Shown here in pieces: positions 4,918 through 42,802 of a stretch of 64,000 nt of DNA. Position 1 is the stretch's first letter; each line of letters opens with the position of its first letter. The notes below the pieces were generated by a model. The model saw nothing but the letters and a program-made list of their open reading frames with translations, searched no databases and was not told the DNA's origin. This DNA comes from an uncultured Ruminococcus sp. (GTDB lineage Bacteria; Bacillota; Clostridia; Oscillospirales; CAG-272): the NCBI GenBank assembly GCA_902795355.1, contig CADBKZ010000009.1, positions 352-64,351 of the forward strand, read 5' to 3'. Made by a program: the position numbers and the translations under genes.

Positions 4918-4929
4918 AACTTCATAAAA

Positions 4930-4971: not shown

Positions 4972-4973
4972 CC

Positions 4974-5002
4974 TTGACATTTCGCGCGCGGTTTGATATA
5001 AT
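4974..5002 (+). promoter_or_regulatory. Sigma-A type promoter for the ECF sigma operon
   Basis: TTGACA, 17-nt spacer, TATAAT (perfect consensus). Confidence 0.6.
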
Positions 5003-5124
5003 GGATGACGGCAGAATTGCCAAAAAAACAAAAGTCCGCAACGCGGCGGGGGCTTTTCCGGTACTTGATAGGTGAAAGGCCTTTTTGAAATACGCAAAGA
5101 GCAAAGGAGAGAACGGGACACAAG

Positions 5125-5688: not shown

Positions 5689-6440
5689 ACGGAAAAAGGA
5701 TTCTGGATGCCGTCGGCGGCATTGATTACGACCTGATCGAGGACGCCGAGCGGCCGAGGCGCGGGAACCGACCCGCCCGCTTGGCAAAATGGGGCGCGCT
5801 TGCCGCCTGCCTGATGGTTTTGCTTGGGAGCGCGGTTACGGCGGCGGTTTTGCGGCGGGCGCGTTCCGAACCGAAAGCGAGGGACATGTCCGGAGACGGC
5901 GCGGGAGACGGCGCGGTTTACACCGTCAACCTGACGGCGGCGTGCGTTCGCACCGGAACCGAATGGAAACTGACCGACGAGGCGGGGTATGCCTATCTTT
6001 CGGAGCGGGTCGTCGTGCTGACGTCCGCTTTGCGCGCCAGCGGCGTTCCGGTGGAAACGCTGTCGGTTTCTCCCCGCGGCTACGCGCATATCCGAATGGG
6101 CGCGGACGGCAACACCATTTCGGAGAATTGGAGGGATTTCCTGCTTTACGACGGGAACCGGCTGGTTGCAATCGCAACGCTATATCGGGATGAAACCGGC
6201 ATTTTCGATTCGCTCGCGTTCGGCGCGCCGTGGTTTTCGGATTATGCCGATCTTCTCAAAGCGCACGCAGGCGAGGAGCTGATCTACCTGTATATCGGGG
6301 ACGCGGAGACGATCCTGACGCCGGAAAACGACGCGTACACACTTGCGGGCACACCGTTTTCGGGGCTTGCCGACGGAACCGATTATTATTCGTTCTTCCG
6401 GAACGAAGAAGTGGTATTCATTCCGGCGATTGTGCCATGA
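5685..6440 (+). CDS. Single-pass membrane protein, probable cognate anti-sigma factor
   Basis: ATG 5685 overlaps the sigma stop (ATGA). N-terminus MNGKRILDAVGGIDYDLIEDAE, one TM helix (WGALAACLMVLLGSAVTAAVL), about 190-aa extracytoplasmic domain. No HxxxCxxC zinc motif. Confidence 0.6.
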   Translation: MNGKRILDAVGGIDYDLIEDAERPRRGNRPARLAKWGALAACLMVLLGSAVTAAVLRRARSEPKARDMSGDGAGDGAVYTVNLTAACVRTGTEWKLTDEAGYAYLSERVVVLTSALRASGVPVETLSVSPRGYAHIRMGADGNTISENWRDFLLYDGNRLVAIATLYRDETGIFDSLAFGAPWFSDYADLLKAHAGEELIYLYIGDAETILTPENDAYTLAGTPFSGLADGTDYYSFFRNEEVVFIPAIVP

Positions 6441-7690
6441 ACCGCGCGGCGTTCCGACCCGTCGGCGCGGATCCGGCCGACTCCGCTTGCGGGCATGCTG
6501 ATACAGGGGATAGAAGCCAAATGCCGCCATCGGGGGGCGCACATGGCCGAATCGGAACACTTCCCCGAGCGTTGGGAGCGGGCACTGCCCGCAATGCGGG
6601 AATCGAGTTGTTCCGCTGTGTTTCCATGATTCTGATCGTGCTTCTCCATGTGCTGGGGCGCGGCGGCGTTCTCGCGTCCGCGTCCGCCTCGCGCGGGAGC
6701 TATGCCGCGGCGTGGTTTTTGGAAACCGTTGGCTATTGCTCGGTGAACTGCTATGCGGTTATCTCGGGGTACGTTGGAATAAACGCCCAGTTCCGCTTCC
6801 GCAGAATCGCGCTTCTCTGGCTGGAAGTTGTTTTTTGGCTGGCGGTTCCCGCCGCGGTTTGCAAGCTGTTCTTTCCCGCCGCGGTCGGCATCGATTGGGG
6901 AGAGACCTTCCTTCCCGTTACGCACAAAACCTTTTGGTATTTCAACGCATATGTGCTGTTGTTCCCTTTTATCCCGATCCTCAACGGCGGTTTGCGGCAA
7001 TTGTCCCGCAAACGCCATTTGGCAATTCTGGCGTTTTTGTTCGTTGCAGCCGCGTGCCTGCATTGCTTTTCGGGATACGACCTTTTTGTTACGGGAAGCG
7101 GCTACTCCGGCGCGTGGCTGATCATTCTTTATGTGTTCGGCGCGTATTTCGGGCGATACGGCGTTCCGCGTTTTGCAAAACGGGGACGGACGCTCGCCGC
7201 GTTCTTTGCCTGCGCTGCCGCGGCTTGGGCAATTCAGATGCTCGCGTTCGACCTCGCGTCCGCCGGTATCGTTTCGCGGGACAGCCTTGTTTACAAATGC
7301 CTCGGAGAAGCGGTGAATTACACCTCGCCGTTCATGGTGATCATGGCGGTCTGCCTGCTGTGTTTCTTTGCGCAAACGCACGTGAAACCGGATTGGCTGG
7401 CAAATCTGATCCGAAACATGGGCAAGGGGACGTTCGGCGTGTACCTGTTCCATGTGGGTCCCGTTCTTTGGGAGAATTGGATGGTCGGGCGGTTCCGGAA
7501 CCTCGGGAAAATGTCGCCGCCGAAGCTGACGGTTTGCGCGCTCTTGGCGGCGGTTGCGCTTTTCCTGCTCTGGGACGCGCTTTCCCTCGGGCGGCGGTAC
7601 CTTTTCCGGCTTTGCCGCGTGGAGCGGGGAATAAACCGCTTGGCGGATTTCTTGGAGAAAGCATGGGAAAAGAGAGAAAATATAGAATGA
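6437..7690 (+). CDS. Acyltransferase family 3 integral membrane protein (OatA-like acyltransferase domain, no SGNH domain)
   Basis: ATG 6437 overlaps the upstream stop (ATGA). IELFRCVSMILIVLLHVLGRGG and multiple TM helices are typical of acyltransferase_3. The start could lie further downstream. Confidence 0.75.
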   Translation: MNRAAFRPVGADPADSACGHADTGDRSQMPPSGGAHGRIGTLPRALGAGTARNAGIELFRCVSMILIVLLHVLGRGGVLASASASRGSYAAAWFLETVGYCSVNCYAVISGYVGINAQFRFRRIALLWLEVVFWLAVPAAVCKLFFPAAVGIDWGETFLPVTHKTFWYFNAYVLLFPFIPILNGGLRQLSRKRHLAILAFLFVAAACLHCFSGYDLFVTGSGYSGAWLIILYVFGAYFGRYGVPRFAKRGRTLAAFFACAAAAWAIQMLAFDLASAGIVSRDSLVYKCLGEAVNYTSPFMVIMAVCLLCFFAQTHVKPDWLANLIRNMGKGTFGVYLFHVGPVLWENWMVGRFRNLGKMSPPKLTVCALLAAVALFLLWDALSLGRRYLFRLCRVERGINRLADFLEKAWEKRENIE

Positions 7691-7717
7691 AATCAAGAAT
7701 TGTTCTATAAAAAGAGC

Positions 7718-7757
7718 AAACAAGCAGGCGTTTCCGTTTGGAAACGCCTGCTTGTTT
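7718..7757. terminator. Bidirectional terminator between convergent acyltransferase and gtrA genes
   Basis: AAACAAGCAGGCGTTTCC-gttt-GGAAACGCCTGCTTGTTT, a perfect 18-bp stem flanked by A/T runs. Confidence 0.8.
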
Positions 7758-7766
7758 TCGGGTAAA

Positions 7767-8360
7767 TCAGCCGAGGTTGTCCGCGTTCGGGGGCGCGGCG
7801 GTTTTGCCGGCGTCGGCCTTTTGCTCGCCCTCTTCTTTCGGTTTTCTGCTCTTGCGAAAAACGATCAGTTTCCCGATCAGGTAGTTGATGGCAGTTACGA
7901 GAATGATCGATACCACCATGGTCAGAATGTCGGCCGTAAAGGTGACGCCGACGAACCGGAACGGGCGGTAGGAAAGGCTGTTGAGCGTCAGCGGCAGCAG
8001 CACGGCAAGCCCGAGTTCGAGAAAATAGGTCCCGATGCGCGAAACCACAAAGGTTCCGAATTGGCGGAAGAATACCGACTTGCGGAAGTCCTTGTCGCGG
8101 AACACCAGCACTTTGTTGGGCAAAAATGCAAACAAAACAGCCGCGATCCATCCTGCCGTTTGCGCCGCCGAGCGGAGCGCCGAACCGCGGCCGGCCATGG
8201 TCGGGTCGGTGGAGTTCAGGTCAATACCGTACATGCGGGCGAAAGAATAGAGGATCAGGGAGCGAACGCCGTAAGAGACGATGGTTGTCGCAAGCCCCAC
8301 CAGCGAATAGACGATAAATTCGCCGAAGTTTTTCCAGAATTTTTCCTGCTTTGCCGTCAT
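7767..8360 (-). CDS. GtrA family membrane protein
   Basis: 197 aa. FGEFIVYSLVGLATTIVSYGVRSLIL, four TM helices and a Lys/Glu-rich tail. Start overlaps the cysS stop (ATGA). Confidence 0.75.
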   Translation of the reverse strand: MTAKQEKFWKNFGEFIVYSLVGLATTIVSYGVRSLILYSFARMYGIDLNSTDPTMAGRGSALRSAAQTAGWIAAVLFAFLPNKVLVFRDKDFRKSVFFRQFGTFVVSRIGTYFLELGLAVLLPLTLNSLSYRPFRFVGVTFTADILTMVVSIILVTAINYLIGKLIVFRKSRKPKEEGEQKADAGKTAAPPNADNLG

Positions 8361-9784
8361 CTCGGTTCCACGCGGTAGGTCGTACCGTCTTTGGTGTCAA
8401 TCAGGGTCACGCCGCGCGCGGCAAGCTCGCTCCGGATGCGGTCGGCTTCCGCGTAGTTTTTGGCGGCCTTGGCGGCGCGGCGCGCTTCGATCTGCGCCTC
8501 GATCTCCCGCGCAAAACCGTCGTCGGCCGCGGGTTCGCCCGTCGGGGCGTTTTGCAGAGCTTTCGCGCCTTCCAGCAGGTTCAGCTGCAAAACCGAATCA
8601 AACTCGCGCAAGAGCGCCAATTTCGTGGCGCCGCCCGCGGGCAGTTTGAGAACGTCGTAAACCGCGGTAACGGCAAGCGAGGTGTTCAGGTCGTTGTCCA
8701 AGGCTTTTACGAAGTTTGCTTTCTGCGCTTCAAACGCCGCTTGATCCACCGCGCCGTCCTCGGAGAGCTGCGCAATTCTGGCAAGCAGCTTCGCGTAGGC
8801 GGTTTTGGCGTTATCCAGATTTTCAAAGGAGAACACCAGCGATTTGCGGTAGTGCGATTGCAGGCAGAAGAAGCGATAGACCATGGGATCATAGCCTTTT
8901 TGCTCCAAGAGCGAGAGCGTGAGAAACTCGCCGCTCGATTTGCTCATTTTGCCCGTGGTAGTGTTCAGGTGGAGCACATGGAACCAATAATTGCACCATT
9001 TATGCCCTAAATAGGCCTCGGATTGAGCAATTTCGTTGGTGTGGTGGGGGAAAGCGTTGTCAATGCCGCCGCAGTGAATGTCGAGCTTTTCGCCGAGGTA
9101 TTTCATGCTGATGCAGGAGCATTCGATATGCCACCCGGGGTATCCCAAGCCCCAAGGACTTTCCCATTTCAGTTCCTGATCGTCGAATTTGGATTTGGTG
9201 AACCATAGCACAAAGTCGGCTTTGTTGCGCTTGTTGCCGTCCTCTTCCACGCCCTCGCGAACGCCCACGGCAAGGTCCTCTTCCTCGAAATTGTGGAACA
9301 CGTAGTACTGTTTGAGCTTGGACGTATCGAAATAAACGTTCCCGCCCGCAAGGTAGGCATAGCCCTTTTCAAGGAGCGAGGAGATCACCTTGATGAAATC
9401 TTCCACGCACCCCGTTGCGGGTTGAACCACCTCGGGGCGGCGGATGTTGAGTTTGCGGCAATCGTCGAAAAAGCAATCGGTATAGAATTTTGCAATTTCC
9501 ATGACCGACTTGTGCTCGCGCTTTGCGCCTTTGAGCATTTTGTCCTCGCCCGTGTCGGCGTCGGACGTCAGGTGTCCCACGTCGGTAATGTTCATCACGC
9601 GGGTCACTCGGTAGCCCGCGTAGCGGAGATAACGGTCGAGGATATCTTCCATCATATAGGTGCGGAGATTGCCAATGTGGGCGTAATGGTAAACGGTGGG
9701 GCCGCAGGTATATAAACTGACCTTGCCCGCCTCGTTCGGAATAAACTCTTCCTTGGTGTGGGAGAGGGAATTATACAGTTGCAT
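8357..9784 (-). CDS. cysS: Cysteine--tRNA ligase
   Basis: MQLYNSLSHTKEEFIP...LYTCGPTVYHYAHIGNLRTY (HIGH motif) and KMSKSSG (KMSKS motif). Confidence 0.95.
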   Translation of the reverse strand: MQLYNSLSHTKEEFIPNEAGKVSLYTCGPTVYHYAHIGNLRTYMMEDILDRYLRYAGYRVTRVMNITDVGHLTSDADTGEDKMLKGAKREHKSVMEIAKFYTDCFFDDCRKLNIRRPEVVQPATGCVEDFIKVISSLLEKGYAYLAGGNVYFDTSKLKQYYVFHNFEEEDLAVGVREGVEEDGNKRNKADFVLWFTKSKFDDQELKWESPWGLGYPGWHIECSCISMKYLGEKLDIHCGGIDNAFPHHTNEIAQSEAYLGHKWCNYWFHVLHLNTTTGKMSKSSGEFLTLSLLEQKGYDPMVYRFFCLQSHYRKSLVFSFENLDNAKTAYAKLLARIAQLSEDGAVDQAAFEAQKANFVKALDNDLNTSLAVTAVYDVLKLPAGGATKLALLREFDSVLQLNLLEGAKALQNAPTGEPAADDGFAREIEAQIEARRAAKAAKNYAEADRIRSELAARGVTLIDTKDGTTYRVEPR

Positions 9785-9805
9785 GGTTGATTCACCTTTG
9801 CGATT

Positions 9806-10393
9806 TTATGATTTTGGGCGGCCCGCCTTCTTTTTGGCAACCGAAAAGCCGAATTTGCCGAGACGACGGCCGAGCGAATAATAGTCGCCGTGGGCATAGG
9901 CCGCGAGGTCGGCGCGCTCCATGCGGAGTTTGCCCTCGCCGTCGAGCAGACTTTCGTCCGCGTCAACGGCAACAATGTCGGCAAGAAACATATCGTGCGA
10001 GCCGAGCGGAAGAATGTCGGTTACGCGGCATTCGAGGGCGAGCGGGCATTCCGCAATCAGCGGAACGGAGATCACGCTTGCCGGTTCGGGCGTGAGGCGA
10101 CATCGCTCGAACTTGTTCACCTTTGCGCCCGTGTGGACGCCGCACCAATCCGCCGCGCGGATCAGCGAAGCCGGCGTCAGGTGGACGGCAAATTCGCGCG
10201 TTTGGCGGATCATTTCGTAGGAATGGCGGGTGGGGCGCACCGAAATATAGGTTTTGGGCGGTTGACTGTTCACAATTCCCGTCCACGCAATGGTAATGAT
10301 GTTGGTTTCGTCGCCCCGCGCGCAGGTTACAAGCGCGGGCGGAACGGGCGAGAGCAGCGCGCTGCCTTTCCAATGCACTTTCGGCATAAACAA
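9806..10393 (-). CDS. Flavin reductase-like domain protein
   Basis: 195 aa. NIITIAWTGIVNSQPP and HGDYYSLG are typical of the flavin reductase (FMN-binding split barrel) family. Lies 21 nt upstream of cysS. Confidence 0.7.
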   Translation of the reverse strand: MFMPKVHWKGSALLSPVPPALVTCARGDETNIITIAWTGIVNSQPPKTYISVRPTRHSYEMIRQTREFAVHLTPASLIRAADWCGVHTGAKVNKFERCRLTPEPASVISVPLIAECPLALECRVTDILPLGSHDMFLADIVAVDADESLLDGEGKLRMERADLAAYAHGDYYSLGRRLGKFGFSVAKKKAGRPKS

Positions 10394-10427
10394 ATCTCCC
10401 CCCCCAACCGCAAAAAATACACATCAT

Positions 10428-10456
10428 AGTATACCACATCCGCGGCGTTTTGTCAA
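10428..10456 (-). promoter_or_regulatory. Promoter of the flavin reductase-cysS-gtrA operon
   Basis: Minus strand: TTGACA, 17 nt, TATACT. Confidence 0.5.
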
Positions 10457-10607
10457 GGTTTTCTCGCCAAAAGCGCGCCGGAGAGACGGATTTTCTTTCC
10501 GCTATTGACTTTTTGTCGGTTTTATGGTAAAATAACATCGGCGGCGCATGCGGCGCCGGTTATCCCCCAAAAAACAAACGATTCGACAAACGAAAGGATT
10601 CGGAAAC

Positions 10608-11498
10608 ATGAGCAAGGCAACTTTGGTGGTTCTCGCGGCGGGGTTGGGAAGCCGTTTCGGCGGCGACAAGCAGATCTCAAACGTCGGCCCGCGCGGGGAA
10701 TTTTTAATGGAGTATTCGGTTTTCGACGCGGTTTCCGCAGGATTCGACCACGTGGTGTTCATTCTGAAAGAGGCCATGGTGGAAACGGTCCGCGAAAGAT
10801 TTGAGGGGCGGTTCGGGGGCGTGACCTTCGATTACGCCGTGCAGGACGCGACCACGGTCCCCGCGTTCTACCATATTCCAGCGGAGCGCGTGAAACCGCT
10901 CGGAACGGTGCATGCGGTCCTCGCGGCGGCGAAATATCTGGATTCGCCGTTCGCAACGATCAACGCCGACGACTACTACGGCAAGGAAGCCTACCGCATT
11001 CTCGCGGGGCTTCTCGGCGGGCTGTCGCGCGCGGACGAGGCGGTTATGGTGCCGTACGTTCTCGGGAATACCATGAGCGAGAACGGCGGCGTAACAAGAG
11101 GGGTTTGCGCCATTGAAAACGGCGTTCTGACCGGTGTGAACGAAACGCCCAACATCCGGTACGGGGACGGAAAAACCGTCGTTTCGGATCGGGGAGAGTT
11201 GAACCCGTCGGAAATGGTTTCCATGAACATCTGGGGCTTCCACCGGAGCTTTGTTCCCGTGATGCAGACCTATTTTGAGAATTTCCTGAAATCGCTCGCG
11301 CCGGACGAGCTCAAAGCGGAGTGTCTGCTCCCCATCATGGTGAACGACCTGCTCCGCGAGGGGCGTTTAACCGTGAAGGCCGAGCCGTCGCCCGATCGCT
11401 GGTTCGGGATTACCTACCGAGAGGATCGGGAGAGCGTAATGGCGGAATTGGCGGGTCTGCACGCAAAGGGAGAATACCCCGAACCGTTGAAAATCTGA
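10608..11498 (+). CDS. Sugar-phosphate nucleotidyltransferase family protein
   Basis: ATG 10608 after GAAAGGA. MSKATLVVLAAGLGSRFGGDKQ is the G-rich NTP-transferase signature. Confidence 0.75.
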   Translation: MSKATLVVLAAGLGSRFGGDKQISNVGPRGEFLMEYSVFDAVSAGFDHVVFILKEAMVETVRERFEGRFGGVTFDYAVQDATTVPAFYHIPAERVKPLGTVHAVLAAAKYLDSPFATINADDYYGKEAYRILAGLLGGLSRADEAVMVPYVLGNTMSENGGVTRGVCAIENGVLTGVNETPNIRYGDGKTVVSDRGELNPSEMVSMNIWGFHRSFVPVMQTYFENFLKSLAPDELKAECLLPIMVNDLLREGRLTVKAEPSPDRWFGITYREDRESVMAELAGLHAKGEYPEPLKI

Positions 11499-11548
11499 CG
11501 GTTCCGAAAAAATTCAGGAAAAATTCAAATTTTTTTCCGAAAAACCTA

Positions 11549-11576
11549 TTGACAAAACCGGAAAATCTGCTATAAT
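11549..11576 (+). promoter_or_regulatory. Promoter of the riboswitch-controlled cassette
   Basis: TTGACA, 16 nt, TATAAT, about 12 nt upstream of the aptamer. Confidence 0.6.
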
Positions 11577-11587
11577 ATATGGTGGAA

Positions 11588-11662
11588 TTGAATTAAGGGC
11601 AAAGCAGTCGTAAGGCTGTGACGCAAAGCCATAGGGTCCCGAAAGAGACAGCCGGTTGCAAA
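11588..11662 (+). promoter_or_regulatory. c-di-GMP-I (GEMM-I) riboswitch aptamer
   Basis: AAGGGCAAAGCAGUC-GUAA-GGCUGUGACGCAAAGCCAUAGGGUC..GAAA..GACAGCCGGUUGC. It has a GNRA-capped first hairpin, the conserved ACGCAAAGC junction, AUAGGG, and a GCAA/UUGC closing helix. Very close to clostridial class-I examples as I remember them. Confidence 0.85.
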
Positions 11663-11690
11663 CGAAATGTTGCAATCGGTTGTTTTTGTT
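11652..11690 (+). terminator. Riboswitch expression-platform intrinsic terminator
   Basis: CCGGTTGCAA-acgaaatg-TTGCAATCGG (10 bp, one G-U) followed by TTGTTTTTGTTG. The 5' arm overlaps the aptamer 3' closing strand. Confidence 0.75.
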
Positions 11691-11715
11691 GTAAAAAAAG
11701 GAAAGGGGAGGCCGC

Positions 11716-12609
11716 ATGAAAAAGTTTTTGAGCATGTTCAAAAGCGCGCCGAAAGGCAAAGTTGCCAAGTTGGCATACGCGTTTTTCGGAATCATTGTCA
11801 GCGGAGTGATACTGGTTGCGGCAACTACCTCCATGGCGTGGTTTTCCAACAATCAGAGAACCGATGCCAACGCATTGGAACTCAAATCGTTACAGAACGA
11901 TACCACGGCAAGGTATTCGGTTTATAAATGGGATTTTGAAGAAGGCAACATTGCCAATGGGCATGGCACCAATCTGGATAGTGAGTCCAACCCGCTGACG
12001 TTGGAAACCGGATTCTCCCTCAATACGCATGACGTGGTGTTCACCAGCGAAAACCTCTATAACCCCGCATTTGTCCGCATTGAGCTTACGGGAAGCAAAT
12101 ACGAGGGGAAGAGCGGATCGCTTACCGTTAATCTGATTCGTTCCGAAGAATACGACAGCAACGAAACCGTTCTGACCGAAACGCTTTCCAGCGTGGCGCA
12201 GTTTGCATGCACAACCGGGGCGGTTGCATATCTTGATAACGCGGAAACGGTCTATTCCACCGCGTACGGGTTGTTCTGCAACGCGGAAAACGGCAAGCTG
12301 AAAAACAGCGGTCCCTTTGTAAAAAAAGAGTTCACCACCTATGATGTGGAGGAAGAAGGCGGAAATCCCGTCTATTCCAATTTTGAAAAAGTCAACGAAT
12401 TGGAATTTTCCGTGTCCTATAACGCGGAAGACTGGACGGAAGACGGAAAGCTTTATATTTACCTTTGCGTTTGCTATGATGAGATTCTGGCGGAACTTGT
12501 GGCGCGTGGGAATACCGACTTTTCGGCATTTCTCGACCTTGGAACTTCCAAACCGATGACAAACGATCTTTCCGTGATCTACATTTCCTTTAACGAGCCG
12601 ACCCCGTAA
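11716..12609 (+). CDS. Uncharacterised secreted/membrane-anchored protein with a SipW/TasA-like N-terminal signal region
   Basis: RBS GGAAAGGGGAG. N-terminal Lys-rich segment, hydrophobic helix LAYAFFGIIVSGVILVAATTS, then MAWFSNNQRTDANALELKS. Lower G+C than neighbours. No recognisable catalytic motif. Confidence 0.7.
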   Translation: MKKFLSMFKSAPKGKVAKLAYAFFGIIVSGVILVAATTSMAWFSNNQRTDANALELKSLQNDTTARYSVYKWDFEEGNIANGHGTNLDSESNPLTLETGFSLNTHDVVFTSENLYNPAFVRIELTGSKYEGKSGSLTVNLIRSEEYDSNETVLTETLSSVAQFACTTGAVAYLDNAETVYSTAYGLFCNAENGKLKNSGPFVKKEFTTYDVEEEGGNPVYSNFEKVNELEFSVSYNAEDWTEDGKLYIYLCVCYDEILAELVARGNTDFSAFLDLGTSKPMTNDLSVIYISFNEPTP

Positions 12610-26659: not shown

Positions 26660-26846
26660 AAAAAAGTGCAACCGGAAAAGACCGTTCCGGAAGAACGGTT
26701 TTTCGGTTGAACAGGGGTTGTTTTGCGGTTGCCCGCATATTTGAACCTGTTTTAACGATCGGGGGTTCCGACCGGAGAAGCATCCGCCGAATTTTCGATC
26801 ACTTCTCGCCTCGTCAACCGCGCCCGAGGGGCGCGGTCTGGCGCTA
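26660..26846 (-). ncRNA. glmS ribozyme (GlcN6P-dependent self-cleaving leader)
   Basis: Minus strand: AGCGCCAGACCGCGCCCCUCGGGCGCGGUUGACGAGGCGAGAAGUGAUCGAAAAUUCGGCGGAUGCUUCUCCGGUCGG... This matches the conserved core (AGCGCCAGA, GACGAGG, AUCGAAnnUUCGGCGGAUGC). The 3' boundary is approximate. Confidence 0.9.
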
Positions 26847-26983
26847 TTATCACCCGAATTTGCGGGGAACGGCGGTTACCCGCCCCATGCCTGCCGCCGT
26901 TCGTTCGCGGGCAAGGGGCTTTTTTGATTTTGCAAAACGCGGCGCGCTTTGCGAAAACACAGGAAACGCGAGCCGACGGCGGC

Positions 26984-34917: not shown

Positions 34918-35733
34918 TTATGTGCCGTACACCTGTTTCGCGTTTTCGGAGAGAATGGCGCGGCGTTCGGTGTTGGTCAGCGGAAGCTCAAAGAAAAATT
35001 CCAATTCCTTTTCGGGACTCCACATGGGGTAATCGGTCCCGAACAGAACGCGGTCAACGCCGTAGCGGCGGATCAACGCCGTTACGCGCTCGTGCGGGTC
35101 TCCGCTTTTCATAAACGGCATGGTGGAAGAGCAATCCACCCAAAGGTTCGGAATGCCCGCGAGTTGCTCCGCTGCCTCTTCCCAGATCGACCATCCCCCG
35201 AAATGCGCCCCCACGACCCGCAGCCGCGGAAACCGGCGCAGAACGGGCAGGAGACGGTTGGGGTTGGAATAATCGTAGCGGCTGTCCCCCGTGTGCATCA
35301 GAATGGGAAGGTCAAGCTCCTCGCAGAGCGCGTATGCGGGGAAGAACAGGGGGTCGTCGATGCGGTACTTCTGAATGTCGGGGTGAATTTTAATGCCGCG
35401 CAGACCCAGCCCGACCAAGCGGCGAATGTCGCCTTCCATATCGTCCGAGGCAGGGTGAATGGTCCCCAGCCCCGTCAGCTTTCCGTTCCCCTCGGCCACT
35501 TCCGCCGCGATGAACGCGTTGATGCTCCCCACCTGCTTCGGGGTGGTTGCCACCGATTGCACCACAAACCGATCCACGCCGGCGGCTCCCCCGCGCTCGG
35601 TCAGGTCGCGAACGGTCCCGCGGCCGTCGGCAACGGTGCTGTAAAACGCGTCGGTCCCCGCAACCGCTTTTTCGGCGATTTTCTCGGGGTAGATGTGGCA
35701 GTGCGCGTCCCAAATTTCAAATCCGTTCCGCAT
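34918..35733 (-). CDS. Amidohydrolase 2 family (TIM-barrel metal-dependent hydrolase)
   Basis: IWDAHCHIYPEKIA, ILMHTGD, GAHFGGW, LFGTDYPMW motifs. Confidence 0.75.
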   Translation of the reverse strand: MRNGFEIWDAHCHIYPEKIAEKAVAGTDAFYSTVADGRGTVRDLTERGGAAGVDRFVVQSVATTPKQVGSINAFIAAEVAEGNGKLTGLGTIHPASDDMEGDIRRLVGLGLRGIKIHPDIQKYRIDDPLFFPAYALCEELDLPILMHTGDSRYDYSNPNRLLPVLRRFPRLRVVGAHFGGWSIWEEAAEQLAGIPNLWVDCSSTMPFMKSGDPHERVTALIRRYGVDRVLFGTDYPMWSPEKELEFFFELPLTNTERRAILSENAKQVYGT

Positions 35734-38252
35734 TACGCCGTCACCACCTTGTCGGCCTTTTGCAGGCCCAATTTTTCAATCGCGTCCTTGCGCATCTGGT
35801 ATTTCAGAATTTTTCCCGCCGCGTTCATGGGGAACGACTCCACAAAGTCGATGTATTTCGGCACCTTATGCCGTGCCATGCTCGCCGCAATGAACGCGCG
35901 CATTTCGTCGGCGGACATCGTTTCTCCCTCTTTCAGGATTATGCAAGCCATAATCTCCTCGCCGTACTGCTCGTCGGGAACGCCGATCACCTGCACGTCG
36001 CTCACCTTGGGGTGCGTGTAGATGAACTCCTCGATCTCCTTGGGGTAAATGTTTTCGCCGCCGCGGATGATCATATCTTTGAGCCGACCTGTGATGCGGA
36101 AGTTGCCCTCGGGCGTGCGGCAGGCAAGGTCGCCGGTGTGGAGCCAGCCTTCCGCGTCAATGGCGGCGGCGGTGGCCTCGGGCATTTTGTAGTAGCCTTT
36201 CATAATGTTATAACCGCGCGCCACAAACTCGCCCGTGACCTCGTCCGGACAATCCTCTCCCGTTTCGGGATTGACGATCTTGCACTCGATTTCGGGCAGA
36301 GGACGACCCACGGTTCCGACGCGGACCTCGATGGGGTCGTCGGTGGAGCTCATGGTGCATCCCGGGGACGCCTCGGTCTGGCCGTACACAATGGTAATCT
36401 CGGTCATGTGCATTTTTTCCACCACATCGCGCATGGCGGAAATGGGGCAGGGGCTGCCCGCCATAATGCCGGTCCGCATATAGGAAAAATCGGTTTTCGG
36501 AAAATCGGGGTGGCCGAGCATGGCGATGAACATGGTGGGAACGCCGTGGAACGCCGTAATATGCTCGTTATGGATGCAGGCGAGCGCGGGCTTGGGCGAA
36601 AAATAGGGAAGCGGCAGGAGCGTGACCCCGTGGGTCATCGAGGCGGTCATGGCCAGCACCATGCCGAAGCAATGGAACATGGGAACCTGAATCATCATGC
36701 GGTCGGCGGTGGAAAGGTCCATGCGGTCGCCGATGCACTTGCCGTTGTTCACAATGTTGCGGTGGGTGAGCATAACCCCTTTCGGAAAGCCCGTGGTGCC
36801 CGAGGTGTACTGCATGTTGCAAACGTCGTCGGGGGTCACGGCGGCGGCCATACGGGCCACCGCTTCGGGCGGGACTTCGGAAGAACGGTCCAGCGCGTCC
36901 TTCCAAGTCAGGCATCCTTTTTGGGTAAACCCGACGGTAACGACATTGCGCAGGAACGGCAAACGCTTGCTGTGGAGCGGGTCGCCGGCCTTTTTGGCTT
37001 CCAGCTCGGGGCAAAGCTCGGCAACAATTCTGCCATAGTGCGTGTCCTTCGCGCCCTCGGTCATAATCAGCGTGTGCGTATCCGATTGGGAGAGCAGGTA
37101 TTCCACCTCGTGGATCTTATAGGCCGTGTTGACCGTTACCAGCACGGCTCCAAGCTTTACGGTTGCCCAAAAGGCGATGTACCATTGCGGAACGTTGGAA
37201 GCCCAGACCGCTACATGCGTTCCCGCCCTGACCCCCAGCGCAATGAGCGAGCGGGCAAAGGTGTCCACGTCGTCGCGGAACTCCGAGTAGGTGCGGGTAT
37301 AGTCCAGCGTGGTGTATTTGAAGGCGTATTGGTCGGGGTATTCTTCCACCATGCGGTCGAGTACGTCCGAAAACGTGCAGTCGATCAGCAGGTCCTTTTT
37401 CCAAATGAACGTTCCCGTGTGCGCGCGGTTCCAATAAAGGGCTTTTTCCCCGCGCGAGGGGTCGCCGAACTGCTTCATGTAGTTTGCGAACTGCGCAAGG
37501 ACGATCTCCATATCGTCCAGCTCGGGGCACCATGCGGGGTCCCAGACAAGGGAGAGAAAGCCGTCGTAGTTCACCGAGCGGAGCGCGAGCATGATTTCGG
37601 CAACGGGAAGTTCCCCCTCGCCGAGCAGGCAGGCTTCCACGCCATCCGCCGTGCGGCGCGCGTCGCTGATATGCACATGGCGGACATACGCGCCGAGGTT
37701 TTTGATTACCTCGCCCGCGCGTTCTCCCCCCTCGAACCAAGCGGCCGACATTTGCCAGAGCGCGCCGAGACGGTCGGTTGCGAACCGGCCGAGAAAATCG
37801 CGCAGGCGATCGGAACGGCAGAACAGCCCCGAAGTTTCTATCAGGAGCGAGACGCCGAGCGATTCGGCCTCGGGCAACTGCGCGGCAATCAGAGCGGCGG
37901 CGCGCTCGGCGGCGGCTTCGGCGTCCTCGGCTTCGGCGGCGCGCAGGCGGACGGCGGGAATATGGAACGCCGCGGCAACGCGCAGGCAATCGCGGAGTTC
38001 TTCCGCGGCGGCGGTCGGGTCGCCGGCAATGTCGGCAATTACGTCAACGGCGGGCAGGGAAAGCCGCTTTTCGTAAAGCTCGCGCAGGGTTGCGGAAGCC
38101 GTTTGGTCGCGGAAGGCGCTGTTGCGGTCGGTAAAGAGCGTTCCGCGAACGTTGTGAAGCTCAATGCCGTCCAGCTTCAGGTCGTTCGCCGCGGCGCAAA
38201 GCTCGGCAAAGGACGCATTGTGCCAACCCTTGGTGGAAAAGGAAAGTTTCAT
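35733..38252 (-). CDS. Fusion protein: N-terminal xylose isomerase-like TIM barrel (sugar phosphate isomerase/epimerase family) plus C-terminal AMP-dependent synthetase/ligase
   Basis: 839 aa. MKLSFSTKGWHNASFAELCAAANDLKLDGIELHNV (TIM barrel), then YTSGTTGFPKGVMLTHRNI, GYGQTE, TGDLA, RLKDMIIRGGENIYP (adenylate-forming enzyme core motifs). Confidence 0.85.
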   Translation of the reverse strand: MKLSFSTKGWHNASFAELCAAANDLKLDGIELHNVRGTLFTDRNSAFRDQTASATLRELYEKRLSLPAVDVIADIAGDPTAAAEELRDCLRVAAAFHIPAVRLRAAEAEDAEAAAERAAALIAAQLPEAESLGVSLLIETSGLFCRSDRLRDFLGRFATDRLGALWQMSAAWFEGGERAGEVIKNLGAYVRHVHISDARRTADGVEACLLGEGELPVAEIMLALRSVNYDGFLSLVWDPAWCPELDDMEIVLAQFANYMKQFGDPSRGEKALYWNRAHTGTFIWKKDLLIDCTFSDVLDRMVEEYPDQYAFKYTTLDYTRTYSEFRDDVDTFARSLIALGVRAGTHVAVWASNVPQWYIAFWATVKLGAVLVTVNTAYKIHEVEYLLSQSDTHTLIMTEGAKDTHYGRIVAELCPELEAKKAGDPLHSKRLPFLRNVVTVGFTQKGCLTWKDALDRSSEVPPEAVARMAAAVTPDDVCNMQYTSGTTGFPKGVMLTHRNIVNNGKCIGDRMDLSTADRMMIQVPMFHCFGMVLAMTASMTHGVTLLPLPYFSPKPALACIHNEHITAFHGVPTMFIAMLGHPDFPKTDFSYMRTGIMAGSPCPISAMRDVVEKMHMTEITIVYGQTEASPGCTMSSTDDPIEVRVGTVGRPLPEIECKIVNPETGEDCPDEVTGEFVARGYNIMKGYYKMPEATAAAIDAEGWLHTGDLACRTPEGNFRITGRLKDMIIRGGENIYPKEIEEFIYTHPKVSDVQVIGVPDEQYGEEIMACIILKEGETMSADEMRAFIAASMARHKVPKYIDFVESFPMNAAGKILKYQMRKDAIEKLGLQKADKVVTA

Positions 38253-39628
38253 GCCTGCTCCTCCTCATAAATGATTTTGTTCACCGCCGAGAGATAGGCG
38301 CGGATGGCGGCGCCGATGATGTCGGTGGAAATGCCGTTTCCGGCGTATACCCGCCCGTCCGAGCGCAGGCGAACCAGCGCGGAACCGAGCGCCTCGCGCC
38401 CTTCCGTTACCGATTGGATCTGAAAATCATCCAATTCATACCGGCGGCCAACCACCTGCTCGATGGCCGAGAACGCGGCGGCAACGGGACCGTCCCCAAT
38501 GCTGACGCCGGTGGAATTTTTTCCGTCCCGCGCCAACGTGATCTGCGCGCTGGCGGAAATGATGTTGCCGCTGTTGACGACATAGTTGACGAGCTGATAA
38601 GCCGACGGCACTTGCAGAGCGGTTCCCGCCACAATGGCGTCCAGCTCGCGCGCGCCGATCTGCTTTTTGGAAGCGGCGCGGAGAAATTCTTCGTAGACCT
38701 TTTTCTGATCCTCTTCGGAAAGGTCGTAGCCGAGCCGCGTTACGGCGGCGGCCACCGCCTGTTGGGAGTCGTTGCCGTCCAGAAGCAATTGCTCGTTTTC
38801 GGCGGGAGCGGCGGAAACGGCCGCGCGGGAATTATCGCTGACCCAGCGGATCTGCCGGACGATGCGCTGAATCTCTGTCAGCCGCAGGCGCGACGCGATG
38901 CCGTAGCGGTCGCCGCATTCGCGCAGAATGCCCGCAAAGGTTTCCAGCGGAACGGTGGAACCGTCCACGCAGGTTTTTACCACCGTTGCGCCGTGCCGAG
39001 CGGCAATCAGAGCCTCGGCGCAGGCGAGGCCGTTCCGGTTCTCGCAGCGGATGCCGAGCGGAACCGCGACCGACTTGGCAATGGGTTCCATAAAGTCGGC
39101 AAACTCGTCGGGGGCCATTTCGGCGGCGCTGTCGCAAATCGAAATCAGGTCGGCGCCCGCCTCGGCGGCGGCGCGGACCGCCGCCGCCAGAAATTCGGGT
39201 TCGGCACGCGTGGCGTCCACGGCGCAGAACTCCGCTTCCATCCCTTTCGCTTTTGCGGCGCGGACCGCTTCGGCGATCCATTCGAGCTGCTTGGCGGGCT
39301 TGCGGTGGGCAATGTATTCCATTCCGACGGGCGAGAGCGGAAGCTCGACGCGAATGCGCGGGCGAGCGGCCGCGGAGAGGGCCGCCGCGGCGTTTTCGAT
39401 GCTTTCGGGAGAGCTTCCCGCCGCCACCGACAGTACGCCGTTTTTCACAAAAGCGGACGCCGTGCGCACCAAAAGAATGTCCGCGCGGGCATTGGCAATT
39501 TCGGGAAGCTCGATGGCGTCAACGTTCAGGCGTTCGAGCCACCGCGCAATTTCAAGTTTTTCTTTGAAGCTGAATGTGCCGTTTTCGCGGCAGAGCGTTG
39601 TGTCGGCGATCCGGATTTGAGTGGACAT
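38249..39628 (-). CDS. 2-isopropylmalate synthase/homocitrate synthase-like protein with a degenerate catalytic site and an intact LeuA regulatory (dimer) domain
   Basis: IADTTLCRENG replaces the canonical DTTLRDGEQ, and IRCENRNGLACAEAL replaces HxHNDxG. The C-terminus GDGPVAAAFSAIEQVV...STDIIGAAIRAYLSAVNKI matches the LeuA allosteric domain. Confidence 0.75.
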   Translation of the reverse strand: MSTQIRIADTTLCRENGTFSFKEKLEIARWLERLNVDAIELPEIANARADILLVRTASAFVKNGVLSVAAGSSPESIENAAAALSAAARPRIRVELPLSPVGMEYIAHRKPAKQLEWIAEAVRAAKAKGMEAEFCAVDATRAEPEFLAAAVRAAAEAGADLISICDSAAEMAPDEFADFMEPIAKSVAVPLGIRCENRNGLACAEALIAARHGATVVKTCVDGSTVPLETFAGILRECGDRYGIASRLRLTEIQRIVRQIRWVSDNSRAAVSAAPAENEQLLLDGNDSQQAVAAAVTRLGYDLSEEDQKKVYEEFLRAASKKQIGARELDAIVAGTALQVPSAYQLVNYVVNSGNIISASAQITLARDGKNSTGVSIGDGPVAAAFSAIEQVVGRRYELDDFQIQSVTEGREALGSALVRLRSDGRVYAGNGISTDIIGAAIRAYLSAVNKIIYEEEQA

Positions 39629-39639: not shown

Positions 39640-39960
39640 CTTTCGATTGGGGAAACAGACACGGTTTTCGGATGAAAAAAGCCCCGACATCGGCGATTTA
39701 CCGATGTCGGGGACGAAATTGCAATTTCGCGGTACCACCCCGTTTACCGCCACGGCGGGCGGTCAACTCTTGCGGCTCGAACAAGCCGGTTGCCATGGTA
39801 ACGGGGCAGGCCGTGGCTGCTTACTTCGCCGCGAGGCGGTTCGGCGACCCTGCTACGGAACGAGACTTCCCATGCCCGCCGCGCCGTTTCGCACCAACCA
39901 ACGGCTCTCTGCTTCGGCTTTCGGCAAAGGAATAATTCCATCATCGCATTTGCGTGTGTT
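39640..39960 (-). promoter_or_regulatory. T-box leader (tRNA-sensing transcription attenuator), specifier probably CUC (Leu)
   Basis: Minus strand: K-turn-like GCGAUGAUGG, AG bulge GCAGAGAGCC, distal loop GGUGCGAAA, AGUAA box, F-box CCGUUA, T-box AAACGGGGUGGUACCGCG, then the terminator. Confidence 0.85.
39675..39714 (-). terminator. T-box leader terminator
   Basis: Minus strand: CCCCGACAUCGG-uaaaucg-CCGAUGUCGGGG followed by CUUUUUU. The 5' arm overlaps the antiterminator 3' strand. Confidence 0.85.
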
Positions 39961-39974: not shown

Positions 39975-40003
39975 ATTTTACCACAACTTTGCGGGTTTGT
40001 CAA
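39975..40003 (-). promoter_or_regulatory. Promoter of the T-box operon
   Basis: Minus strand: TTGACA, 17 nt, TAAAAT. Confidence 0.55.
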
Positions 40004-40028: not shown

Positions 40029-40589
40029 TCAATTCAACGCCTCTGCGAGTTCCAACGGCAGCCGCCGCCGGATCAGCTGCGCCAACGCGAACGCAAGAGC
40101 CACCGAGGCAATGTCCTTGGGCAGAAACGGGAGCGACGCGCCTTTGACGGCCGCGGCGACCGAAATATGGTTGACAACCGCGAGCTGCAACGCCCCGCAA
40201 AGGTGGCAGAGCAGAAGCCCCGCAACGCCGAGCAGGATCCCGAACACCCACCGCAGAACACGATGGCGCAAGCGGCAGGCAAGGCCGCAGAAAAAGACCA
40301 TCAGCAGGAAACCGTAAATAAACCCGCCCGTGGGGCCCACAAGTTTGGCGAACCCGCCCTGCATGCCCGAGAAAACAGGCAAGCCGAGCGCGCCGATGAA
40401 AATGTAGACGCCGACGGCGCCGAGCCCGATCTTCCAACCGATTATAAAGCCGCAAAAGGCAACGGCAAAGGTTTGCAGCGTCATGGGAACGCCCAAAAAG
40501 TTGATCGGGATGGGAATAACGGTCAGTACGGCGATCATAGCGGCGAACAGGGCGGTAAAGGTGATTTTCAGGGTACGGGTGCGTTTCAT
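40029..40589 (-). CDS. bioY: Biotin transporter BioY (ECF S component)
   Basis: Start MKRTRTLKITFTALFAAMIAVLTVI. VPMTLQTFAV, GALGLPVFSG and GPTGGFIYGF are typical of BioY. Confidence 0.9.
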   Translation of the reverse strand: MKRTRTLKITFTALFAAMIAVLTVIPIPINFLGVPMTLQTFAVAFCGFIIGWKIGLGAVGVYIFIGALGLPVFSGMQGGFAKLVGPTGGFIYGFLLMVFFCGLACRLRHRVLRWVFGILLGVAGLLLCHLCGALQLAVVNHISVAAAVKGASLPFLPKDIASVALAFALAQLIRRRLPLELAEALN

Positions 40590-40672
40590 GGAGTTCTTCT
40601 TTCGGTTTGCATGGGATTTGCGGTTGTTGTGTTTGCCCGCGCGGGGCGCGGACGGAATGGTTTTTCGGGCGG

Positions 40673-41488
40673 TTATTTTCCGTCCTCTTTCAGGTAGCGT
40701 TCCAATTCTTGGCGGCGGTAGGCTCCGGGGGTAATGCCGAACGTCCGGTGGAAAACGGTGTTGAAATAGGATTGCGAGCAGAACCCGCATCGCTCCGCCA
40801 CCTCTCCGATGCTGACGGGCTCGGTAATCAGGATCCGCTTCGCCTCTTCCATGCGAACGTCGCTCAAATATTCAAACGGCGTTTTTCCGATGGCGCGCCG
40901 GAACAGACCATGGAAATAAATGGGAGTAAAATTCGCGCTGGCGGCAATGTCGCCAAGCGAGACCGACTCCATGTAATGCGTTTCCATAAAATCGATGGCG
41001 CGGGAAATGCCGCTGCGCCGCCGCTCTTCCGTATACCGGTCGAGCTGACTCGCGCGTTTTACGCCGGCTCGGAGCTGGGAGAGAAATTGCAGAAAGCGGG
41101 CGCCCGCAAGCAGTTCGTCCCCCGCGTTGGCGGCGGCCAATATTTCGCGGATCGCTTTGGCGGGGTCAACGCCGTCCGGAATGCGGGAATAGCGCGGAAG
41201 CGCGCGGATCGCCTCGGCCGCAACGCCGCCGTCGTCTTCCGTTTTCAGGTAGTCGGTTTTCAGCGGCAGTTTGCTGTGGCGCGTTTCGTTCGGCAGCGCG
41301 CGGAGCATGTATCCGGCCCGAATGGGGCAGGCAACGTCCCCAAGGTAGGTCACGCCGCCGTCCTCGCTGTAAAATTCCAATTCCAGACAGGAAACGGTTC
41401 GTTCAGGGGTCAAGGTCTGCCCGCGAAAGGTTTCGTTGCTATCGAACACGCCGGCCGAAAATTTTCCGGTCGCCAATGCAATTTCCAT
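40673..41488 (-). CDS. AraC family transcriptional regulator
   Basis: Start MEIALATGKFSAG. C-terminal dual HTH (SLGDIAASANFTPIYFHGLFRRAIGKTPFEYL...VAERCGFCSQSYFNTVFHRTFGITPGAYR). Divergent from the dehydratase gene. Confidence 0.85.
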   Translation of the reverse strand: MEIALATGKFSAGVFDSNETFRGQTLTPERTVSCLELEFYSEDGGVTYLGDVACPIRAGYMLRALPNETRHSKLPLKTDYLKTEDDGGVAAEAIRALPRYSRIPDGVDPAKAIREILAAANAGDELLAGARFLQFLSQLRAGVKRASQLDRYTEERRRSGISRAIDFMETHYMESVSLGDIAASANFTPIYFHGLFRRAIGKTPFEYLSDVRMEEAKRILITEPVSIGEVAERCGFCSQSYFNTVFHRTFGITPGAYRRQELERYLKEDGK

Positions 41489-41641
41489 GGGTGTATTCCT
41501 CCCGAAAAGTAAAATTCCGATAAAAGACAGAAAGATTCCGACTATCCCGCGCGGAAAAAATCTGCTATAATCAATTGTAGCACGAAAACGGGAAAAAATC
41601 AAGCCCGTAGGAAATTTATTTTTCGGAAAAGAGGATTTGCC

Positions 41642-42802
41642 ATGAAAGTAACCGATGTAAAATGCTTCGCGGTGGATTGCTACCGCACCAATTGGGTTTT
41701 TGTGGAGGTTTACACGGACGAAGGGATCGACGGCGTTGGCGAGGCGACGCTCGAATATAAGGAAAAGGCGTTGCTCGGCGCGGTGGACCACATTCGCGAA
41801 TATCTGGTCGGAAAGGACGCGCGGGAGATCGGAGCGCATTGGTTCCATATCTACCGCGACGCGTATTGGCGCGGCGGCGCGGTGCTGATGAGCGCGCTTT
41901 CGGCCGTGGAAACGGCGTTATGGGATATTCTCGGTAAGTCGCTCGGCGTTCCGGTTTCGCAGCTGCTGGGCGGGTGCGTGAACGCCGAGGTGCCCATTTA
42001 TGTCAACGGTTGGTTTGCGGGAGCCAAAACGCCGGCGGAGTTTGCCGAAAAGGCGAAAGCGGCGGCCGCGCGCGGCGTTGCGGGCATGAAATGGGATCCG
42101 TTCGGGAAAGCGTACCTGCGCCTGACCGCCAAAGAGCTGGATACCGCCATTGCCTGCGTGGCGGCCGTCCGCGAGGCCGTTGGAAACGGGGTGGAGCTTC
42201 TGATCGAGGGTCACGGCCGTTTCGACGTTCCAACGGCGGTTACGGTTGCGCGCGAGTTGGCGCCGTTCAAGCCCATGTGGTTCGAGGAGCCGGTGCCGCC
42301 CGATAACCTCGGCGCGCTCAAAGAGGTCAGAAGTCGATCCCCCATCCCGATCGCGGCGGGCGAGCGGCTCTACACCCGCTACGATTACCGCGCCCTGTTC
42401 GATCAATGCGCGGCGGACTACATCCAACCCGACGTCAGCCACGCGGGTGGCATTGCAGAGCTTGTCAAGATCGCCGCCGAGGCGGAATCCCGCTATCTCG
42501 CGTTCGCGCCGCACAACCCGTCGGGTCCGGTGGCCAACGCGGCAACCTTGCAGGTTGCGGCGGTCTGCCCGAATTTTTGCATGCTGGAATCCATGTTCTC
42601 GGACGTTACATGGCGCGCGGACGTATGCGACGAGCGGCTGACGTTCCAAAACGGGAAGCTGCGGATCCCGCAGAAAGCGGGGCTTGGCATTGAGATTGAC
42701 GAGGAAGCCTGCCTCGCGCACCCCTACCGGCCGCACACGCTCCGCCATTACACGGGCGCGCTGACCGACATTCGCCCGCCGGAAACGAAATTTTACTATT
42801 GA
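41642..42802 (+). CDS. Enolase-superfamily sugar-acid dehydratase (D-galactonate dehydratase family)
   Basis: MKVTDVKCFAV...VEVYTDEGIDGVGEATL...SAVETALWDILGKSLGVPVSQLLGG. The N-terminal capping and barrel motifs match the mandelate racemase/muconate lactonising family. Confidence 0.85.
   Translation: MKVTDVKCFAVDCYRTNWVFVEVYTDEGIDGVGEATLEYKEKALLGAVDHIREYLVGKDAREIGAHWFHIYRDAYWRGGAVLMSALSAVETALWDILGKSLGVPVSQLLGGCVNAEVPIYVNGWFAGAKTPAEFAEKAKAAAARGVAGMKWDPFGKAYLRLTAKELDTAIACVAAVREAVGNGVELLIEGHGRFDVPTAVTVARELAPFKPMWFEEPVPPDNLGALKEVRSRSPIPIAAGERLYTRYDYRALFDQCAADYIQPDVSHAGGIAELVKIAAEAESRYLAFAPHNPSGPVANAATLQVAAVCPNFCMLESMFSDVTWRADVCDERLTFQNGKLRIPQKAGLGIEIDEEACLAHPYRPHTLRHYTGALTDIRPPETKFYY

Follow-up and report, generated by a model that had tools for sequence, protein, structure and literature searches.

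A degenerate 2-isopropylmalate synthase relative between a leucine T-box leader and an acyl-CoA ligase gene in Oscillospirales

The LeuA-like gene, its leader, and the adjoining ligase gene

The stretch of DNA analyzed here (64,000 nt of contig CADBKZ010000009.1, referred to below as the window) comes from an uncultured Ruminococcus sp., a rumen bacterium whose genome is 97.4% complete. On its reverse strand, at positions 38249–39628, lies a gene with an ATG start that encodes a 459-residue relative of the 2-isopropylmalate synthase (IPMS) LeuA. The next gene on the same strand (35733–38252) encodes an 839-residue protein in which a xylose isomerase (XI)-like TIM barrel (residues 1–285) is fused to an ANL-family acyl-CoA ligase (residues 286–839; Pfam AP_endonuc_2, AMP-binding, and AMP-binding_C), and its start overlaps the stop of the LeuA-like gene by 4 bases. 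An earlier note on this DNA had proposed that the LeuA-like protein lost its catalytic residues but kept its allosteric domain, and that it could be a pseudoenzyme or ligand-sensing subunit linked to the ligase fusion.

The LeuA-like protein consists of a degenerate DRE-TIM barrel (residues 1–256), a shortened linker (257–299), accessory subdomain II (300–340), and a LeuA_dimer regulatory domain (341–459). Pfam recognized HMGL-like (PF00682) at residues 15–256 with 108 bits and LeuA_dimer (PF08502) at residues 325–452 with 102 bits, the latter match covering positions 3–130 of the 131 in the model. All of the NCBIfam LeuA, CimA, and NifV models scored far under their own cut-offs; the best LeuA equivalog, NF002086, gave 255 bits, which is less than half of its cut-off of 532, and TIGR00973 gave 227 bits against a cut-off of 599. 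An AlphaFold2 model built from 111 family sequences had the LeuA fold and a mean pLDDT of 93. Its top Foldseek matches were structures of Mycobacterium tuberculosis LeuA, including the leucine-bound 3FIG, and its barrel superimposed on the catalytic domains of bacterial LeuAs (3EEG and 3EWB) with an rmsd of 1.6 Å. The C-terminal part of the model forms two β-β-β-α units (DSSP strands 345–352, 359–367, and 370–378 with helix 381–393, and strands 398–409, 412–423, and 426–434 with helix 437–458), which is the known build of the IPMS regulatory domain (PMC11057210; PMC9860122).

All of the strings on which the earlier note relied were located in the protein (DTTLCRENG at residues 9–17, RCENRNGLA at 194–202, GDGPVAAAFSAIEQVV at 378–393, and TDIIGAAIRAYLSAVNKI at 435–452). 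Its description of the protein as a LeuA paralogue holds for family and fold, but the genome has no working LeuA of which the gene could be a paralogue. The LeuA-like gene is the sole LeuA-family gene of the genome, which encodes just one further HMGL-like protein, oxaloacetate decarboxylase alpha.

The LeuA-like gene is preceded, in 5′ to 3′ order, by a promoter, a T-box, a terminator hairpin, and a ribosome-binding site, all on the reverse strand. The promoter, read from the sequence, is of the sigma-70 type (39975–40003; TTGACA at 40003–39998 and TAAAAT at 39980–39975, with a 17-nt spacer) and sits just past the stop of the upstream BioY gene. The T-box leader (39706–39953) matched positions 1–219 of RF00230, the whole model, with 89.4 bits (E = 3.6e-20). 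This score is just under the Rfam gathering score of 93, which is why the default Rfam scan missed the leader and why it was found only in E-value mode. In the cmscan alignment the specifier codon is CUC (Leu) at 39864–39862, with G next, and the T-box core GGGUGGUACCGCG lies at 39740–39728. An intrinsic terminator (39675–39715), also read from the sequence, consists of a GC-rich hairpin and a run of six U; at its 3′ end the T-box match runs into the 5′ arm of this terminator.

Catalytic motifs and constraint on the regulatory domain

We aligned the LeuA-like protein with a motif-intact LeuA, P0257 (which contains DTTLRDGDQ, HCHNDLGLA, GIGERAGN, and HESGIH), as well as with solved LeuAs. The protein is about 50 residues shorter than LeuA and is 33% identical to P0257 overall, with roughly 60% identity, judged by eye, across the last 80 residues. 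Where the RDGEQ motif provides Arg-Asp-Gly-Glu-Gln, with the substrate Arg and the metal-binding Asp, the LeuA-like protein has Cys-Arg-Glu and a 4-residue gap, and Arg-Cys-Glu stands where P0257 has H-C-H, so that both metal ligands of the HxH motif on strand 7 are gone. The two replacements reported in the earlier note were thus borne out, the catalytic Arg, Asp, and His being absent, and the losses go further than it had listed. Val137 sits at the position of the catalytic Glu of EFSxED, the GIGERAGN loop is deleted (a 5-residue gap), and the HESGIH stretch, which belongs to accessory subdomain I, the active-site cap that carries the catalytic His, is missing from the alignment with P0257. 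In this region, residues 257–276 replace about 55 positions of the NCBIfam model, and the HxSGIH motif was found in none of the short-form family members. The alignments indicate that the protein is almost certainly not an isopropylmalate synthase.

The positions that are catalytic in LeuA vary across the family. Among 111 family representatives, the metal-Asp position takes at least eight residues (Glu, Arg, Gln, Lys, Asn, Asp, and others), the position of the catalytic Glu is occupied by Leu, Glu, Val, Ile, and others, and His is not among the commonest listed residues at either HxH position. These substitutions bear on the possibility that the protein is still an enzyme with a new metal-independent or differently liganded barrel chemistry, acting, for example, on an acyl-CoA or 2-oxoacid of the leucine route discussed below. 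In favor of such a chemistry, the barrel is predicted to fold with high confidence, D9, T11, S99, D138, R141, D166, and N/D197 are conserved on the old active-site face, and C13 and C195 are invariant within the close family. This invariance does not extend to the wider family, however, in which position 13 is Arg, Lys, or Cys and positions 194 and 196 take many residues, so that no residue replacing a catalytic one is conserved family-wide. Because accessory subdomain I, with the catalytic His, and the GERAGN loop are also deleted, we regard a new enzymatic activity as highly improbable. The retention of second-shell LeuA residues indicates that the barrel is maintained, but probably as structure.

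Relatives of the protein are numerous and uniform in length. A word-indexed search listed more than 120 clusters at 90% identity, 60–78% identical to the query and all about 459 residues long, whose few named members are “hypothetical protein” entries from Clostridia metagenome-assembled genomes. In an exhaustive search, more than 100 clusters at 50% identity, of 453–489 residues, came ahead of ordinary LeuAs. A scan of species genomes found a match in at least 539 GTDB species, mostly Acutalibacteraceae, Oscillospiraceae, and Ruminococcus of ruminant and other guts. About 12 studies of bovine gut metagenomes contain the DNA, and there was no RNA dataset among the listed holders of the sequence.

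The earlier note was also right that the LeuA_dimer domain is well conserved; it is under the strongest constraint of the whole protein. Mean identity to distant members is 57% for the C-terminal 160 residues, 36% for the barrel, and 21% for the linker, and the columns that are at least 90% conserved number 31 of 119 in the regulatory domain and 17 of 256 in the barrel. G380, G432, D436, A448, and N450 are invariant in the 111 sequences, and the GxGP loop and the STD...A.N motifs of the regulatory domain are invariant or nearly so.

Conservation of the cassette and its pathway context

We compared the locus with those of 80 species carrying close relatives of the gene (close loci) and with 20 loci from other families of the order whose LeuA-like proteins are 38–49% identical (distant loci). 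In every close locus with a long enough contig, the LeuA-like gene lies directly 5′ of the gene for the XI–ligase fusion, and the two are adjacent in all 20 distant loci. About 70 of the 80 close loci and 17 of the 20 distant loci have a T-box core 5′ of the LeuA-like gene; in the close loci it lies 80–120 nt from the gene start and is the only core at each locus. In an alignment of 68 close leaders the specifier was a Leu codon in nearly all aligning rows, mostly CUC and in five cases CUG; all four of the distant leaders for which a cmscan alignment was printed (122–132 bits) read CUC. The conserved Leu T-box makes it very likely that the operon serves leucine supply, and its presence upstream suggests leucine as the likeliest ligand of the LeuA_dimer domain. 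The link to the downstream ligase fusion that the earlier note had proposed is supported by adjacency in essentially all loci and by the 4-base overlap in the window. The sequences portray the LeuA-like protein as a catalytically dead protein under purifying selection that is genetically coupled to one enzyme.

Genes of branched-chain amino acid metabolism accompany the cassette in many genomes. In 39 of the 80 close loci, subunits of a 2-oxoacid:ferredoxin oxidoreductase of the VOR type (hereafter VOR), a class IV (branched-chain) aminotransferase (IlvE), or both are encoded just 5′ of the cassette on the same strand. This upstream block comprises a CbiA-like ATPase, a ferredoxin, three VOR subunits, and the aminotransferase, and it is usually preceded by one or two genes for HTH-cupin–ligase fusions. 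In the genome of the window the block lies on another contig (locus L093, contig C2:96000-110000; genes from 229 to 12378). There, two HTH-cupin–AMP-ligase fusions of 786 and 762 residues each have their own T-box (24–268 and 2721–2974), with the specifiers AUC (Ile) and GUA (Val), as in relatives; they are followed by genes for a CbiA-like protein, a Cys/Met pyridoxal phosphate (PLP) enzyme, a ferredoxin, three VOR subunits, a class IV aminotransferase, and a Glu/Leu-type dehydrogenase. The fusion of a ligase to a DNA-binding domain at this locus is unusual in itself. The genome thus contains three T-box-controlled acid-activating enzymes, labelled Ile, Val, and Leu, that share one reductive carboxylase and one aminotransferase, and these labels correspond to 2-methylbutyrate, isobutyrate, and isovalerate, the three volatile fatty acids with branched chains. 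The gene set also agrees with the formation of leucine by carboxylation and amination of isovalerate, which is established biochemistry in rumen microbes (PMC7356843 and earlier work cited there).

The classical route to leucine appears to be missing from genomes that carry the LeuA-like gene. The genome of the window has no match to Iso_dh (LeuB), to the aconitase family (LeuC), or to IlvD. In a survey of 151 high-quality genomes of the order, the short LeuA-like form was present in 33; none of these 33 holders has a canonical two-stretch LeuA, and all 33 have the full XI–ligase fusion. A LeuC-type gene and a high-scoring LeuB-type gene occur together in only one holder, G091. In that genome (locus L111) the LeuA-like gene is fused into a VOR–IlvE operon and lacks a T-box core of its own, and it is the lone exception to mutual exclusion. 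The aconitase-family and Iso_dh matches of the other holders consist of an aconitase of about 650 residues beside a lower-scoring Iso_dh, probably an Acn/Icd pair. The division of Iso_dh matches into a LeuB class and an Icd class by score is rough, and some genomes with intact LeuA also lack the high-scoring class; the exclusion between the LeuA-like gene and the leucine pathway is therefore a strong tendency, not a rule. The surveyed genomes are also related to one another, so that the counts overstate their independence, and the firm part of the result is the gene content of the window's own genome together with the absence of canonical LeuA and LeuC-type genes from the holders (G091 excepted for LeuC).

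The loss of the catalytic motifs and the lack of matches to leuB, leuC, and ilvD are also what would be expected if the gene were a functionless leuA remnant, decaying since the leucine pathway was lost. However, hundreds of species, with identities as low as 37%, have intact open reading frames of constant length; conservation of the C-terminal domain is strong, the fold is predicted with high confidence, and the gene keeps a fixed place between T-box and ligase. A functionless remnant is scarcely credible in the face of these observations, and the pattern of conservation indicates that the LeuA-like gene is real and selected rather than a decaying relic.

A possible leucine-sensing role and its relation to known systems

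Our best reading of these results, which we judge to have an even prospect of being correct, is that the LeuA-like protein is a leucine-sensing, non-catalytic partner of an isovalerate-activating ligase. The protein would be a non-catalytic IPMS descendant whose barrel provides the structural frame and whose working part is the leucine-binding domain at the C terminus. Uncharged tRNA-Leu would switch on the genes for the LeuA-like protein and the XI–ligase fusion by way of the T-box. The ligase would convert isovalerate to isovaleryl-CoA, the 2-oxoacid:ferredoxin oxidoreductase would convert isovaleryl-CoA to 2-oxoisocaproate by reductive carboxylation, and the class IV aminotransferase would convert 2-oxoisocaproate to leucine, which is the old “isovalerate to leucine” route of the rumen. 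The LeuA-like protein would in turn bind leucine and throttle the ligase in trans, and the salvage route would then be controlled at two levels, by tRNA charging and by end-product feedback of the kind that true LeuA gives the classical route. The ligase substrate is probably isovalerate, and the regulatory part of the scheme, in which the LeuA-like protein senses leucine and regulates the ligase, could equally well hold or fail. The idea of a pseudoenzyme or ligand-sensing subunit is supported in its direction by the loss of the motifs, the constraint on the regulatory domain, and the linkage to the ligase, which do not amount to proof of a mechanism. The Leu T-box, the association with an oxidoreductase and an aminotransferase, and the lack of leuB, leuC, and ilvD, none of which figure in the earlier note, supply this idea with a concrete pathway. 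More tentatively, we propose that Oscillospirales, on losing the isopropylmalate pathway, may have retained its first enzyme as a shell, a free-standing leucine sensor that feedback-inhibits a T-box-controlled isovalerate-CoA ligase in trans, which would amount to the transplantation of an allosteric module onto the first step of the replacement pathway.

Several observations weigh against a leucine sensor that regulates the ligase. The first is that 22 of the 151 genomes encode the XI–ligase fusion but no LeuA-like protein, and that an intact LeuA is present in many of these 22. At 15 loci of this kind (L122-L136; e.g., L123:2195-4825) the fusion gene directly follows a T-box; the core was found at 9 or 10 of the loci, and the specifier is CUC in each of the nine T-boxes that were read by eye. 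The position of the fusion behind a Leu T-box in these genomes indicates that the function of the ligase does not need the LeuA-like protein. The fold and family data contribute further points. More than half of the family members still have a basic residue (Arg or Lys) where LeuA has the Arg of RDGEQ, and D9, T11, S99, E104, Y105, K110, D138, R141, and D166 are nearly invariant; the conserved barrel (36% identity) may therefore retain a residual ligand site. A sequence search of the PDB with the regulatory domain alone gave no usable match with which the leucine pocket could be compared, and no protein in which LeuA-like and ligase sequences are fused appeared in a search for longer proteins, which was a weak search. 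For the ligase, the nearest NCBIfam model to the fusion is the generic PRK12583, with 682 bits against a cut-off of 832. Finally, a simple model of isovalerate activation leaves the XI-like domain and the adjacent Amidohydro_2 gene unexplained. A complex prediction for the whole LeuA-like protein with residues 1–290 of the fusion, made with separate alignments, returned a score of 0.00 and was used neither for nor against an interaction.

The unit formed by the Leu T-box and the ligase is the more widespread one and is probably the older. The LeuA relic is an addition to it, placed between leader and ligase in lineages where a working LeuA is not seen. One of the loci without the relic, L122, has an intact leuA and a second LeuA-family gene just 5′ of the Leu T-box of the fusion, and is a possible evolutionary intermediate.

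As the ligase is independent of the relic, an accessory regulator fits the data better than an obligatory structural subunit. A scaffold or channelling partner would organize the ligase, and perhaps VOR or IlvE, or would hold 2-oxoisocaproate or an acyl-CoA, with no leucine feedback. Such a role would account for the invariant adjacency to the ligase gene with its stop/start overlap, and it would also suit the many second-shell LeuA residues that are kept and, in more than half of the family, the basic residue in place of the LeuA Arg. Pairing with partner enzymes is known for HMGL-like barrels, and aldolase–dehydrogenase complexes are among the fold matches. Nevertheless, it is the regulatory domain and not the barrel that is under the strongest constraint, the old substrate and metal positions vary freely, and the ligase fusion occurs in many genomes that have no LeuA-like protein. 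We consider a scaffold or channelling role without leucine feedback unlikely.

The protein could also sense leucine, or another branched-chain amino acid, but act on something other than the adjacent ligase, for instance on VOR, IlvE, a transporter, or gene expression. The conserved regulatory domain, the frequency of VOR and IlvE as neighbors, and the ability of the ligase fusion to do without the LeuA-like protein are all compatible with such an arrangement. However, the ligase fusion is the sole invariant neighbor, whereas VOR and IlvE adjoin the cassette in about half of the loci, and Pfam found no DNA- or RNA-binding domain in the LeuA-like protein. A target other than the ligase therefore seems rather improbable.

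The leucine-sensor reading can be compared with several known systems. The short bacterial form of LeuA (TIGR00973/NF002086; 3RMJ, 3EEG, and 3EWB, and 1SR9 and leucine-bound 3FIG from M. tuberculosis) has the same plan of HMGL-like barrel, subdomain II, and LeuA_dimer domain, and the leuA gene of several bacteria also lies behind a Leu T-box (PMC2700814), as the LeuA-like gene does. Unlike LeuA, the LeuA-like protein lacks the Arg and Asp of RDGEQ, the catalytic Glu, both metal-binding His residues, the GERAGN loop, and the whole of the subdomain I stretch with HESGIH. Its gene is coupled to a ligase gene and not to leuBCD, and is found in genomes that lack leuB and leuC. The leaders of T-box-controlled branched-chain genes in Firmicutes (e.g., Bacillus subtilis ilv-leu, with the specifier CUC; RF00230) are of the same type and share the Leu specifier and the terminator/antiterminator layout, but the controlled genes here encode a dead LeuA and an acyl-CoA ligase fusion instead of enzymes of the isopropylmalate pathway. 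Methylthioalkylmalate synthase (MAM) of Brassicaceae (6E1J, among the top fold matches) is likewise a LeuA descendant that took on a new role through the loss of a module, with the opposite outcome: MAM kept catalysis and lost the regulatory domain, whereas the LeuA-like family kept the regulatory domain and lost catalysis. In the short-form ATP phosphoribosyltransferase, the HisG enzyme forms a complex with HisZ, a dead paralogue derived from an aminoacyl-tRNA synthetase, and both the complex and the role of HisZ are proven. The LeuA-like protein may resemble HisZ as a dead copy of an enzyme from the same amino acid system, kept as a separate protein, that would confer end-product feedback on a different, pathway-starting enzyme. 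It differs in its origin, which is the first enzyme of the classical pathway that was replaced, and in that its complex and feedback are proposals.

Fiber-degrading Clostridia of the rumen and gut need branched-chain volatile fatty acids, and to our knowledge, the rumen isovalerate–leucine pathway has been known only from labelling experiments since the 1960s. In the literature we found no paper that gives genes for the branched-acid activation step or describes regulation of the isovalerate–leucine route, and none that describes the LeuA-like family, an IPMS pseudoenzyme, LeuA_dimer-only proteins, or genes for branched-acid carboxylation. The loci described here offer a testable gene set, consisting of a Leu-switched ligase and a probable leucine sensor near an oxidoreductase and an aminotransferase. 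If the proposal is true, then, taken with VOR, IlvE, and the ligases behind the Ile and Val T-boxes, it would put names to the genes and the regulation of the rumen pathway, and it would provide a clear case of a biosynthetic enzyme that survived only as an allosteric module after its pathway was replaced. Hundreds of species carry the family, whose sole annotation is “hypothetical protein.” The regulatory domain might be used as a part for leucine biosensors, and the operon as a marker of dependence on branched-chain fatty acids in ruminant nutrition.

Other genes and RNA elements at the cassette and in the window

Across the order, the ligase domain is the most conserved part of the cassette, with 68–89% identity where the LeuA-like protein has 38–70% and the XI-like domain has 30–70%. 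The XI-like domain of the fusion (37383–38252, reverse strand) is a xylose-isomerase-like barrel, and we read its metal site from alignments to solved proteins of the XI fold and to 21 orthologues. Some distant orthologues retain the full Glu-Asp-His-Glu metal set. In the window protein two of the four ligands are gone (Gln167 for Asp and Val236 for Glu), and the position of His192 is Tyr in half of the family. With this degenerate metal site the XI-like domain of the window protein is probably not catalytic, and the operon may thus encode two degenerate barrels, this one and that of the LeuA-like protein.

Immediately downstream of the fusion gene, at 34918–35733 on the reverse strand, is a gene for a 271-residue protein of the metal-dependent hydrolase fold (Amidohydro_2, PF04909, 146 bits) in which the HxH, His, His, and Asp ligands are present. 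The closest solved structure, 3IRS, is itself uncharacterized. The close loci keep the order LeuA-like, XI–ligase, Amidohydro_2 wherever the contig suffices, and the Amidohydro_2 gene comes after the ligase gene in most of them. In the distant loci the Amidohydro_2 gene lies 3′ of the ligase gene in 2 of the 20 and 5′ of the LeuA-like gene in two more; its presence at so few distant loci marks it as an optional third gene of the operon.

Upstream of the operon the window carries a BioY biotin transporter gene (40029–40790) and a gene for an AraC-family regulator (40673–41848), both on the reverse strand, neither of which adjoins the cassette in other genomes. We considered a functional tie of the cassette to BioY, for example in biotin or pimelate activation, and rejected it because BioY is not a neighbor elsewhere and because the promoter and the T-box intervene. 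In one sub-clade, genes for a Cys/Met PLP enzyme (MetY-like) and a homoserine O-acyltransferase (MetA) lie 3′ of the cassette (L029:6196-8491 and about 13 other loci, L059-L063, L069, L070, L075, L078, L081, and L086 among them). A Cys/Met PLP enzyme is also encoded inside the VOR cluster of the window's own genome, and this link to methionine metabolism is unexplained. At one locus that has the Leu cassette, a second T-box (L105:13408-13654, reverse strand, 119.9 bits) has the specifier UUC (Phe) and may mark an arylacetate-activating counterpart. Elsewhere in the window, Rfam matches identified a glmS ribozyme (26699–26856, reverse strand, 83.9 bits) and a c-di-GMP-I riboswitch (11588–11663, forward strand, 59.2 bits).

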